Below are positions 42,601-51,600 of a DNA stretch of 64,000 nucleotides, piece by piece. The first letter of the stretch is position 1, and each line of letters starts with the position of its first letter. Position numbers and translations under genes: made by a program. The notes under the pieces were generated by a model. That model had not been told where the DNA came from. It made no database searches and saw only the letters and a list, made by a program, of their open reading frames with translations. This stretch comes from Eledone cirrhosa (taxonomy: Eukaryota): positions 22,258,001-22,322,000 of the forward strand of contig OZ024765.1 in NCBI GenBank assembly GCA_964016885.1, given 5' to 3'.

Positions 42601-45600
42601 TCTCAGGTTCCAAATAATGGGATGCCAGGCGGCATTGAAATATATAGACTGTGAAACCCCACATACTCGTGGAATCGTAAATATCTTCCATGATTCTTCA
42701 GGGCTTTTTCATAGCAATATATCACTAACTTATCAATAACAATATAACATATTTGCTGGCCTATTAGACACCCCTTCACATAAGACGCTCCCCCTTTTTT
42801 TTATCATATTTTACGTTATATTTTGACGTTTATAGGTATTTTTATGGATCACATCCAATATTTGCAGTTTTTCACTCTTCACGGGTGCTCCAGGAGTGTA
42901 GCCCTCGCGAATACTGGGGGACAACTGTATATATATATATATATATATATATATATATATATATATATACACACACTTACATATATACATATGTATAACC
43001 CCCAGTTATTGCTGATACTCATTTTCAGCTGAGTATACTGGAGCAACGTGAAATACCATCTTCCTCTCCAAAATGCCCACCTCTCCAATATACCCACCTC
43101 TCCAATATATATCTACCTCTCCAATTTACCACCAGGTGATAGCATACCCACCTCTCCAATATACCCACATCTCCAATATATACCTACCTCTCCAATATAT
43201 ACCTACCTCTCCAATATACCCACCTCTCCAATATACCTACCTCTCCAATATACCTACCTCTTCAATATACCTACCGCTTCAATATACCTACCTCTCCAAT
43301 ATATACCTACCTCTCCAATATACCTACCTCTCCAATATACCACCTACTTCTCCAATATACACCTACCTCTCCTTTATACTTACCTCTTCAATATACCCAC
43401 CTCTCCAATATACCTACCTCTCCAATATACCCACCTCTCCAGTATACCTACCTCTCCAATATAGCCACCTCTCCAGTATACCCACCTCTCCAGTATATAT
43501 ACCTCTCCAATATATACCCAGCTCTCCAATATACATGCCTCTCCAATATACCCACCTCTCCAATATATCTACCTCTCCAATATATACCCACCTTTCCAAT
43601 ATATACCCACCTCTCCAATATATACCCACCTCTCCAATATATATCCACCTCTCCAATTTACACCAGGTGATAGCATATAACCACAGGTTAGCCAGACTCC
43701 ACCATATACCTCTCCAATATACCCACCTCTCCAATATACCCACCTCTCCAATATACCACCTACCTCTCTAATATACCTACCTCTCCAATATACCCACCTC
43801 TCCAGTATATATACCTCTCCAATATATACCCACCTCTCCAATATATACCTACCTTACCAATATACCTACCTCTCCAATATACCCACGTCTCCAATATATA
43901 TATACCTCTCCAATATACCCACCTCTCCAGTATATATACCTCTCCAATACACCCAGCTCTCCAATATATCCACCTCTCCAATATACCCACCTCTCTAGTA
44001 TATATACCTGTCCAATATATACCTATGTATATCCAATATACCCACCTCTCCAGTATACCCACCTCTCCAGTATATATACCTCTCCAATATATACCTACCA
44101 CTCCAATACACCCAGCTCTCCAATATATCCACCTCTCCAATATACCCACCTCTCTCGTATATATACCTCTCCAATATATACCAACGTATATCCAATATAC
44201 CCACCTTCCCAATTTACCGACCTCTCCAATATATACACCTCTCCAGTATATATACCTCTCCAATATATACCTACCTCTCCAATATATACCTACCTCTCCA
44301 ATATACCTATCTCTCCAATATACCCACCTCTCTCGTATATATACCTCTCCAATATATACCTATGTATATCCAATATATCCACCTCTCCAGTATATATACC
44401 TCTCCAATATATACCTACCTCTCCAATATATCCACCTCTCCAGTATATATACCTCTCCAATATATACCTACCTCTCCAATATATCCACCTCTCCAATATA
44501 CCCACCTCTCTCGTATATATACCTCTCCAATATATACCAACGTATATCCAATATACCTACCTCACCAATATATATCCACCTCTCCAATTTACCACCAGGT
44601 GACAGCATATAACCACAGGTTAGCCAGACTCCACCATATACCTCTCCAATATACCCACCTCTCCAGTATACCTACCTCTCCAATATATATCTACCTCTCC
44701 AATTTACCACCAGGTGACAGCATATAACCACGGGTTAGCCACACTCCACCATATACCTCTCCAATATACCCACCTCTCCAGTATACCTACCTCTCCAATA
44801 TATATCTACCTCTCCAATTTACCACCAGGTGACAGCATATAACCACGGGTTAGCCACACTCCACCATATACCTCTCCAATATACCCACCTCTCCAGTATA
44901 CCTACCTCTCCAATATATATCTACCTCTCCAATTTACCACCAGGTGACAGCATATAACCACGGGTTAGCCACACTCCACCATATACCTCTCCAATATACC
45001 CACCTCTCCAGTATACCTACCTCTCCAATATATATCTACCTCTCCAATTTACCACCAGGTGACAGCATATAACCACGGGTTAGCCACACTCCACCATATA
45101 CCTCTCCAATATACCCACATCTCCAGTATACCTACCTCTCCAATATATATCTACCTCTCCAATTTACCACCAGGTGACAGCATATAACCACGGGTTAGCC
45201 ACACTCCACCATATACCTCTCCAATATACCCACCTCTCCAGTATACCTACCTCTCCAATATATATCTACCTCTCCAATTTACCACCAGGTGACAGCATAT
45301 AACCACGGGTTAGCCACACTCCACCATATACCTCTCCAATATACCCACCTCTCCAGTATACCTACCTCTCCAATATATATCTACCTCTCCAATTTACCAC
45401 CAGGTGACAGCATATAACCACGGGTTAGCCACACTCCACCATATACCTCTCCAATATACCCACCTCTCCAGTATACCTACCTCTCCAATATATATCTACC
45501 TCTCCAATTTACCACCAGGTGACAGCATATAACCACGGGTTAGCCACACTCCACCATATACCTCTCCAATATACCCACCTCTCCAGTATACCTACCTCTC

Positions 45601-48600: not shown

Positions 48601-51600
48601 CTACCTCTCCAATTTACCACCAGGTGACAGCATATAACCACGGGTTAGCCACACTCCACCATATACCTCTCCAATATACCCACCTCTCCAGTATACCTAC
48701 CTCTCCAATATATATCTACCTCTCCAATTTACCACCAGGTGACAGCATATAACCACGGGTTAGCCACACTCCACCATATACCTCTCCAATATACCCACCT
48801 CTCCAGTATACCTACCTCTCCAATATATATCTACCTCTCCAATTTACCACCAGGTGACAGCATATAACCACGGGTTAGCCACACTCCACGTGGCCAAACA
48901 AATCGTCGAGCACGGCCGATCACTTCGACTGCAACCCTTCAATAGTTATCGAAGACGATTCAATCTGAGACCTTACGCCACATTCTTCCAGCTCACAGGT
49001 GAGTGTACGAGATTTCCTCATTGTGTGGATGTGTGGGTGGGGGTGTGGGGTGTGGGTGTGTGTGGGGGGGGGGGAGGAGTTGTGTATACATATACACATA
49101 CATATACATATACATATACATATACATATACATATACACATACATATACATATACATATACACATACATATATATATATACATATACACATACATATACA
49201 CATACATATACATATACATATATATATACATATACATGTACATATACATATACATATACACATACATATACACATACATATACATATACATATATATATA
49301 CATATACATGTACATATACACATACACATACATATACACATACATATACATATACATATACACATACATATACATATACATATACATATACACATACATA
49401 TACACATACATATACATATACATATACACATACATATACATATACACATACATATACATATACATATACATATACATATACATATACATATACACATACA
49501 TATACATATACACATACATATACATATACATATACATATACACATACACATACATATACATATACATATACACATATATATACATATACATATACATATA
49601 CACATACATATACACATACCCATACACATACACATACACATACATATACATATACATATACACATACACATACATCCATATACACATACACATACCCATA
49701 CACATACATATACACATACACATACCCATACACATACACATACACATACATATACATATACATATACATATACACATACATCCATATACACATACACATA
49801 CCCATACACATACACATACACATACATATACATATACATATACATATACACATACATCCATATACACATACACATACCCATACACATACATATACACACA
49901 CATATACACATACACATACATACATATACACATACACATACCCATACACATACATATACACATACATATACATATACACAAAACATATACACACATGCAG
50001 AGATTGTCTATGCGTGTAGAGCAGGTTATTCAGGTGTGTGGGAAGTTTAGACAGGTGTGGAGGTGTGTTTATAACTTTGAGGATGTCACGAAGTGAAAAT
50101 ATGAAAGAAACAGAACCACTTTATGAAGGAATTCCACTTTGTTTGAAAACAAAAGGGTCCGTCATCCTTTGGTATATATTATTACTCATAACCAGTCACA
50201 CATTATGTGTGGGCATATATGTATATATATATATATATATATGTATATATATATATATATATGTAGGAGGTGAGTTTTATTGTAGTACAATAAAGCAATG
50301 CAGATATCGGATAAGAAGCACTCTACAGTTTGTAGGACTGGAGTATACATAATATAAGATCAAAAGATGGTTAAAGGAGTTCCATGTATTTTATTATGCG
50401 CATTTCAAAAACAAACATCATCATGCAATAATATTTGTGTTTTCATCAGATAAAACAGGAGAACATGATATGAAGGCTAAAAACACTTGTGGATAGTGCA
50501 GTTTTAAATCAACATATCTTGATTTAAAACTGCACTATCCACAAGTGTTCTTTAGCCTTCATATCATGTTCTCCTGTTTTATCTGATGAAAACACAAATA
50601 TTATTGCATGATGATGTTTGTTTTTGAAATGCGCATAATAAAATACATGGAACTCCTTTAACCATCTTTTGATCTTATATTATATATATATATATATATA
50701 TATATATACACATACACATACCCTTCCACCACCTGTTTTACCCCCCTTTTAATTTCAGTTTATTTTGATCATGCTTTTATATTTAAATTTATTTCATTCC
50801 TTGTATTTTGATCATGCTTTATTTTTATTTTTTATTTCATTCGCACCGTTTCCTTTCGCTATATGCCTCTCCCCCACTCCCCTACACACCCTTTGAACTC
50901 TGTTCCCACACACTTCCCACCTGAGGAAGGGCTTATGCCCGAAACGTCGTCCCCCACCAACACCCCCACTCTCCAGAGCGTGAAATTAATAAACATTCGT
51001 TGTACTGCCTCTCTGTTTTGTTCCTGTTCAAATTTTTCCATTATATATATATATATATATATATATATATATATATTTATATATATCATTCATTTAAATT
51101 ATTGACGTATTGTTTTATTGATATTTTTTATCTGTTTGTCCCGAATCTTCTATTATCGATTTTTTATCGTATGGTTGATTGTAGACTTGTTCTATATGTG
51201 ACGGTATTTTAACGATAGTTATAGCTCTGATTCATCTGAATTATTGAGCCCTCTGCCGCTCATTTCGAATCTTGTTTATCGTGAACTCGTGCGCCGATTT
51301 TTCGATACTCGATCTTTCTAATACATATATATATATATATATATATATATATATATATATATATATATATATATATATATATATACATATATATATATAT
51401 ATAGATAATTTAATATATCAACTAACATAAGCGCACAGATGCACGCCCATGCCAGCAAATACACAGGTTATGTCATAGTACCTAGGTGGTTCAATGCAGG
51501 AGAATGCAGAACAATAATATAAAGGACGTAAAATAAGAAAATATTTTTTTAAAAAAATTTAAAAAAAATTTTTTTCTTACTTAAATTTTCACTCCAACTA

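Follow-up and report, generated by a model that had tools for sequence, protein, structure and literature searches.

A mirage-type minisatellite copying the intron 8/exon 9 boundary of a cyclooxygenase gene in the octopod Eledone cirrhosa

The 'mirage' minisatellites of amphioxus, found in Adh3, the globin genes BflGb6 and BflGb9, troponin C and PGBD5, repeat in tandem the 3′ end of an intron together with the 5′ part of the following exon. Many of their copies bear splice signals, the interior being homogenised and the edges diverged, and according to published reports they leave splicing undisturbed (PMC3087553, PMC3902484). We describe an array of this type in a window of 64,000 nucleotides (nt) of the genome of Eledone cirrhosa (contig OZ024765.1, G000:C26:22258001-22322000 of a 3.0-Gb assembly), in which 37 decoy copies of the intron 8/exon 9 boundary of a cyclooxygenase (COX) gene on the plus strand precede the true one. 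With tandem units spanning a boundary of a real gene, a homogenised interior and diverged edges, the COX array is on its sequence a new member of the mirage class. It differs from BflGb6, which has 3-6 units of 150-160 nt, in having 37 decoys of 115 nt, in being found in a cephalopod and in that every copy starts with GT. We consider it probable that this is a recent, near-identical minisatellite that has copied the boundary 37 times, that the last acceptor is picked directly and that the products of splicing to decoys are decayed.

Minisatellites in human F7 (IVS7; PMC1557585) and ABCA7 (intron 18; PMC5954066) also multiply one splice site into identical or near-identical copies, the copy adjoining the true exon being the normal one, but these repeat a donor whereas the COX array repeats an acceptor. 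Boundary-crossing duplications in potato RdRp (PMC4974935), there on the acceptor side, and in ATP2A (PMC3265369) carry a cryptic donor within the duplicated piece of exon, comparable with a site at +21 of the COX unit. In potato the new intron and exon are fixed and supported by reads, whereas use of the COX +21 site would add a frame-shifting micro-exon of 20 nt. In human UBC and VCX3A (PMC10809524) each tandem unit has an AGGT that can act as donor or acceptor, and whole units are removable. The UBC units are however coding and in frame, every product is useful and use of the sites has been shown; a retained COX unit would shift the frame and bring in a stop codon, and the COX sites are putative.

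Juxtaposed AG/GT (a slash within a sequence marks the splice junction) is also the basis of recursive splicing, known at Ubx, kuz and Bx in Drosophila and at human CADM2 (PMC8605326, PMC6224609, PMC8184009), where a ratchet point or recursive-splicing exon (RS-exon) regenerates a donor after joining the upstream exon. The COX sites have the same property, and an initial annotation proposed that transcripts mis-spliced from exon 8 to a decoy are re-spliced down the array in multiples of 115 nt, forming a self-correcting ladder that could account for tolerance of the expansion. At known ratchet points the donors are strong and conserved, a cryptic exon can be defined (∼50 nt in fly) and the introns are very long (mean ∼50 kb in fly). 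The COX sites differ in presenting a weak, unconserved donor every 115 nt within an 11-kb intron, and resemble rather the weak 'remnant' class masked by the exon junction complex (EJC). At 11.3 kb intron 8 is the longest in the gene and exceeds the sample median of 1.3 kb, but is much shorter than the mean of recursively spliced introns in fly. Three of the defining features tested (relative donor strength, a definable cryptic exon with its own donor, and conservation) are absent from the COX sites, which we therefore do not class as ratchet points.

The gene and its acceptor array

The elements of the array and of the adjoining exons are as follows, in window coordinates.

37277..37563, plus strand: COX exon 8 (287 nt, phase 0, ending GGTCAG); PDB match and borders, with the joint of exons 7 and 8 a loose end in X4
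37564..48853, plus strand: intron 8 (11,290 nt, the longest of the eight located introns), donor CAG/GTGAGT, 12.06 bits
43063..44593, plus strand: degenerate 17-nt pyrimidine-rich minisatellite, ∼86 copies; from Tandem Repeats Finder (TRF) and sequence
43116..43146, plus strand: oldest captured acceptor copy, with ∼11 nt of exon, starting GTGATA at 43136
43647..43702, plus strand: older acceptor copy, with 36 nt of exon (three differences), starting GTGATA at 43667; internal CAG/GTTAGC
44517..48889, plus strand: 115-nt mirage array, 37 decoys (44599-48739) and the true acceptor at 48854; TRF, sequence and head-to-tail joints in X2 and X3
48854..48998, plus strand: true exon 9, 145 nt long, of which the first 36 nt are common to the decoys; tblastn to Octopus vulgaris COX, with an X4 contig joining its 3′ end to exon 10
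48999..49004, plus strand: exon 9 donor GTGAGT (CAG/GTGAGT, 12.06 bits)

The 115-nt unit consists of 79 nt of intron and the first 36 nt of exon 9. Exon starts lie at 44599+115n up to 48854, and all 38 sites (i.e. the 37 decoys and true exon 9) read CAG/GTGACA. The initial annotation was correct that exon 8, which ends at 37563 in GGTCAG, would regenerate this sequence on joining to any decoy, that the regenerated site is identical to the real donor from −3 to +4 (it differs at +5 and +6), and that the terminal copy alone has a strong donor 145 nt downstream. The 115-nt spacing that it described between 44599 and 48860 is borne out, but its extent left out the two older copies further upstream, at 43136 and 43667.

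The intronic part of the unit is built from the 17-nt motif of the neighbouring satellite, with four CCTCTCC per unit. Among 36 internal units, 26 are identical to the consensus and 10 have a single-base difference, so that the units are 99.8% alike and the array would be recent or homogenised; the edge copies differ from the unit at 2-3 of the 36 exon bases. The 37 repeats count as a single event, copied over and over. GT occurs at three places only in each unit, at +1, at +21 (giving a 20-nt exon with a weak donor) and at +68 (−0.93 bits). The site at +21 is CGG/GTTAGC (5.21 bits) in the young copies and the true exon. It is weaker there than in the copies at 43667-43692 and 44599-44624, which have CAG/GTTAGC (7.71 bits) 20 nt past the acceptor; in these two older full copies it is a possible end of a cryptic micro-exon.

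Two arguments drawn from the units were set aside. The AG and GT are untouched in all 10 variant units, but the changes are too few to be informative about selection on the decoy GT. The array lacks a yTnAy branch-point motif at −40 to −14, but this motif is present in 61 of 90 real acceptors compared with 73% in shuffled sequences, and its absence is uninformative.

Exons 2-10 were positioned by tblastn-type alignment with the O. vulgaris COX protein (P0001). They form a single open frame with no internal stop, in which 492 of 587 aligned residues (84%) are identical to that protein. Exon 8 matches COX-2 structures in the PDB with an E value of 2.8e-33, and its best database relative is O. 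vulgaris COX, at 88% over the exon; a Pfam search with exons 8 and 9 alone gave no match. Full-length homology and the open frame identify this gene as an octopod cyclooxygenase (prostaglandin G/H synthase). Exon 1 was searched for and not located, and our numbering, with which that of the initial annotation agrees, assumes one upstream exon. The remaining exons are:

23965-24084, plus strand: COX exon 2, alignment with O. vulgaris COX, start read from context
24522-24665, plus strand: COX exon 3, alignment with O. vulgaris COX
25010-25153, plus strand: COX exon 4, alignment with O. vulgaris COX
30185-30360, plus strand: COX exon 5, alignment with O. vulgaris COX
32768-32851, plus strand: COX exon 6, alignment with O. 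vulgaris COX
34931-35177, plus strand: COX exon 7, alignment with O. vulgaris COX
53783..54216, plus strand: exon 10, coding part up to the stop, starting GTAACA

Spliced sequence of the gene is present in at least one dataset, X4, which contains contigs across the junctions of exons 7 and 8 and of exons 9 and 10. In X4 the contig of exon 8 reaches 37557 and has no loose end; coverage of exon 9 begins only after its first 105 nt. The joint of exons 8 and 9, decoy use and exon 9 skipping all lie outside the coverage of X4, and these gaps are evidence neither way. As regards the preservation of regular splicing that is reported for mirages, the COX gene offers the two junctions seen in X4. We note also that the donors at 32852-32857 (CAG/GTATTT) and 35178-35183 (TTG/GTACAT) lack G at +5; the latter is backed by a joint in X4.

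Strength and ancestry of the regenerated donor

A donor matrix was constructed from the same genome using myosin exons in 18 regions, with the junctions chosen by protein-profile score and without using splice-site strength. Ninety of 115 junctions were kept; the other 25 were dropped (margin <4.5 bits, or disagreement between two passes). On this matrix, the comparison suggested in the initial annotation, CAG/GTGACA scores 4.81 bits, with 7 of 90 real donors lower (4-9 of 90 across six settings; bootstrap 1st-17th percentile). It lies ∼7 bits below the exon 8 and exon 9 donors (CAG/GTGAGT, 12.06 bits) and is also weaker than the +21 site (5.21-7.71 bits). Under the rule for putative RS-exons, by which the regenerated site passes a score that is passed by 90% of real donors (PMC6224609), it is borderline, falling just below the own-genome 10th percentile of 5.32 bits, a cut-off that lies within the bootstrap range.

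Among own-genome donors without G at +5 the regenerated site ranks 8 of 16, i.e. at the median. Two donors of the COX gene are weaker (TTG/GTACAT, 2.82 bits, and GGC/GTGAGT, 3.55 bits), and AAG/GTGAAA is found among the resolved real myosin donors. GT sites that score at least as well as CAG/GTGACA are common: there are 3972 of 47223 in 760.6 kb, about one per 190 nt, and the 5.5 kb of intron 8 that precede the satellites contain 21. On these scores CAG/GTGACA is a plausible weak donor, neither dead nor strong.

AG/GT junctions are found at 3 of 8 positions in the COX gene and at 9 of 90 in myosin, where 4 of the 9 score at least as high as CAG/GTGACA. A GT start is found in 18 of the 90 myosin exons (20%). 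The junction of COX exons 9 and 10 regenerates CAG/GTAACA (6.66 bits) at a place with no array, and this junction is spliced in the X4 contig. A tandem COX paralog lies beyond the window (G000:C26:22349161-22382892), ∼50 kb past the last coding exon of the window gene, and has diverged, its exons being ∼35-52% identical to those of O. vulgaris COX. At G000:C26:22379537 it has the same phase-0 intron, followed by an exon 9 of the same length (145 nt) that starts GTGACC; the boundary is single-copy in 40 kb, and the junction of exons 9 and 10 is CAG/GTGACT (7.07 bits). The GTGACC start in an array-free paralog indicates that the AG/GT motif is older than the array.

With the intron position in Octopus, the cuttlefish-cluster and other species taken from the paralog, the residues across the start of exon 9 are Gln-Met in O. 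vulgaris, O. sinensis and O. bimaculoides; the cuttlefish-cluster proteins have Val, Patella has Met and fishes have Val or Ile. Since the codon is Met (ATG) in the three Octopus species, there would be no GT at the start of exon 9 in these. The AG/GT motif is thus, as judged from these comparisons, common and inherited, is not specific to the array and is not conserved across related species. It is likely to be a by-product of an old phase-0 intron before a Val codon, copied with the boundary and not a selected ratchet. Weak AG/GT sites have been interpreted as remnants of the splice consensus within exons, masked under normal conditions (PMC8184009).

One further observation on the paralog is that its exon 8 reads LLLHWHQML against HLYHWHPFI in the window gene. 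The catalytic tyrosine appears to be replaced in this sequence, and the paralog may be a cyclooxygenase-dead or neofunctionalised copy.

Proposed selection of the last acceptor

The exon piece of the unit ends at nt 26-36 in CCACACTCCAC, which resembles the motif of the satellite, and this suggests capture by slippage. The array would owe its origin to slippage, or else to unequal exchange, involving the 17-nt CCTCTCC satellite next to the acceptor and the similar sequence within the exon.

The real and decoy acceptors are identical and weak, so the choice between them must rest on downstream context. We propose that the last acceptor is chosen by exon definition together with exon sequence that is unique to the full exon. 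It would be favoured because only the last copy lies one normal exon (145 nt) before a strong 12-bit donor; the introns on both sides are long, and exon definition would favour the closest pair of sites across the exon. Transcripts spliced to a decoy would acquire an early stop and probably be removed by nonsense-mediated decay (NMD). For every decoy tested (n = 1-6), multiples of three units that keep the frame among them, the stop comes at codon 43 counted from the junction, well upstream of the junction of exons 9 and 10; the other decoys share the same unit. By the standard EJC rule an early stop far upstream of the last junction is a target of NMD.

On a mis-spliced transcript, an EJC 20-24 nt upstream would mask the regenerated CAG/GTGACA, as the EJC represses regenerated donors in human cells (PMC6224609) and in fly (PMC8184009). 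The regenerated site would also have to compete with a donor that is 7 bits stronger; donor competition is described as a main determinant (PMC8605326).

A control is available in the same genome. Beclin-1 contains two acceptor-spanning arrays, at G000:C20:7206575-7219121 (51 nt × ∼247) and 7227949-7231266 (62 nt × ∼53). All 246 acceptor copies of the first start with TG, and the flanking exons are in frame. Of the 44 matched copies in the second array, three start with GT (TRF gives ∼53 units). Because the copies of the first array start with TG, the junction AAG/TGTCAC cannot be a donor. This six-fold larger array persists without GT, and tolerance of such an expansion therefore needs no ratchet, contrary to the proposal that the ladder accounts for it. 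Such arrays are not everywhere, since none of 180 myosin splice sites has a duplicated boundary. An acceptor array was also sought in four fasciclin regions (120 kb), and none was found.

Several observations count against direct selection of the last acceptor as we have described it. All the acceptors are weak (3.56 bits, 6th percentile), and a second AG lies 47 nt upstream of every one of them (48807 for the last copy) and scores 7.18 bits against 3.56 for the real acceptor; if it were used, exon 9 would be 192 nt long and would shift the frame. Splicing to the last decoy would produce an exon of 260 nt, shorter than exon 8, and size alone does not exclude it. Where 3′ sites compete in human, exon definition lessens the preference for the upstream one but does not abolish it (PMC9225289). 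Very weak regenerated sites are usable in fly when the EJC is missing (PMC8184009), and annotated RS-exons in fly S2 cells showed no EJC effect (PMC6224609); we found nothing in the literature on an EJC effect on regenerated donors in molluscs. The donor matrix treats positions as independent and is based on 90 myosin junctions only. Lastly, the Beclin-1 control concerns persistence of an array in the genome.

For the ladder to be important, exon 8 would often land on a decoy and CAG/GTGACA would be re-used in steps of 115n nt, giving at least 10% of the correct mRNA. The GT-starting acceptor minisatellite would rescue its own mis-splicing by a system that repeat expansion had created in a single step, at the cost of exon 9 skipping. 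We think this quite unlikely. The geometry is exact, every one of the 38 sites regenerating CAG/GTGACA, and on the exon side the site matches CAG perfectly, with a median rank among donors without G at +5. Weaker donors are present in the COX gene, one of which belongs to a joint found in X4, and a 115-nt intron is longer than the shortest found here (93 nt). Tandem AGGT sites of dual specificity are used stochastically in the splicing of human UBC, and tandem repeats show an 8.4-fold enrichment of introns of this kind (PMC10809524); a duplicated AGGT segment (ATP2A) is spliced out at 6-16% in human cells (PMC3265369). Set against this are the low rank of the site among all donors and the 7 bits by which it falls short of its competitor; a ratchet donor generally exceeds the donor of its RS-exon in strength (PMC8605326). 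In none of the decoys is an exon-sized unit followed by a good donor, there being only the 20-nt one, the motif is inherited and is absent at this position in the three Octopus orthologs, and no ladder is needed in Beclin-1. The ladder also has no built-in stop, for the correct joint of exons 8 and 9 regenerates the same site and the next step skips exon 9. After skipping, the last coding exon would be read for 22 codons before a stop, and the truncated product would likely escape decay, a built-in cost of an efficient ladder. The stretch lost presumably holds the equivalent of the aspirin-acetylated serine. The geometry of the proposal is thus supported and its function is not, although occasional low-level re-splicing of decoy junctions may occur.

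Another view of the array is that it is mildly harmful and unrescued, with much transcript using a near-terminal decoy or the upstream AG and being lost to NMD, so that a low-output allele is tolerated by drift. This too we judge unlikely, though it deserves somewhat more weight than the ladder. The identical weak acceptors would allow it, as would the alternative exons of 260 and 192 nt, which are within the normal size range, the frequent preference for upstream 3′ sites (PMC9225289), and the one-unit retention and exon skipping caused by alleles of the human ABCA7 variable number tandem repeat (VNTR; PMC5954066). Against it are the intact frame with 84% identity to O. vulgaris COX over 587 residues, the spliced contigs in X4, and the reports that mirages (PMC3087553, PMC3902484) and the F7 VNTR (PMC1557585) are silent. 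It is least likely of all that the assembly overstates the array, and that it is much shorter in the animal or present on one allele only. That would fit with units that are 99.8% alike and with the depth of the 115-nt circle over exon 8, which varies from 3.7-fold in X3 to 14-fold in X1 and 37-fold in X2 and is not a copy number; X1-X3 are all from one sample, which may be the source of the assembled DNA. However, head-to-tail joints of the 115-nt unit are present in short-read contigs of X2 and X3, and an X1 contig continues into the next unit. Neighbouring units share variants (−22 T>C at 46209 and 46324, and again at 47934, 48049 and 48164), and with the older diverged copies at the 5′ edge these look like real turnover of an array. 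The short-read joints and depth support many copies without fixing their number; as to array length, the data cover a single locus in one assembly and DNA contigs of one sample.

Neighbouring sequences and significance

Some other features of the DNA were noted in passing. Within intron 9 there is a near-perfect inverted repeat (50344-50688) with 138-nt arms that are 99% complementary and 69 nt apart, and related sequence is found near 9374-9658; the repeat is a possible source of double-stranded RNA and substrate for adenosine-to-inosine editing. At 51395-53416 are three tandem copies of a ∼572-nt unit and an inverted copy of 236 nt with 100% complementarity, the end of which lies ∼370 nt short of exon 10. 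Open frames at 11380-12870, 19688-20389 and 58267-59049 resemble fragments of the reverse transcriptase of non-long-terminal-repeat retrotransposons. Outside the window, in a class II myosin heavy-chain gene (G000:C27:17955001-18015000), the same profile segments were matched two to three times, which is consistent with mutually exclusive exons.

If the ladder were to operate, recursive splicing could arise at once from repeat expansion and buffer that expansion, and the dual-specific-site model of UBC would extend to non-coding decoys; no case of a recursive ladder arising from and buffering repeat expansion was found among the matches listed in the open-access literature. The COX array adds a cephalopod case to a known type of repeat, the mirages. 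The genome of E. cirrhosa pairs an array in which all copies start with GT (37 of 37 COX decoys) with one in which none do (0 of 246 in Beclin-1), and so provides a test bed for the role of re-splicing in acceptor choice.

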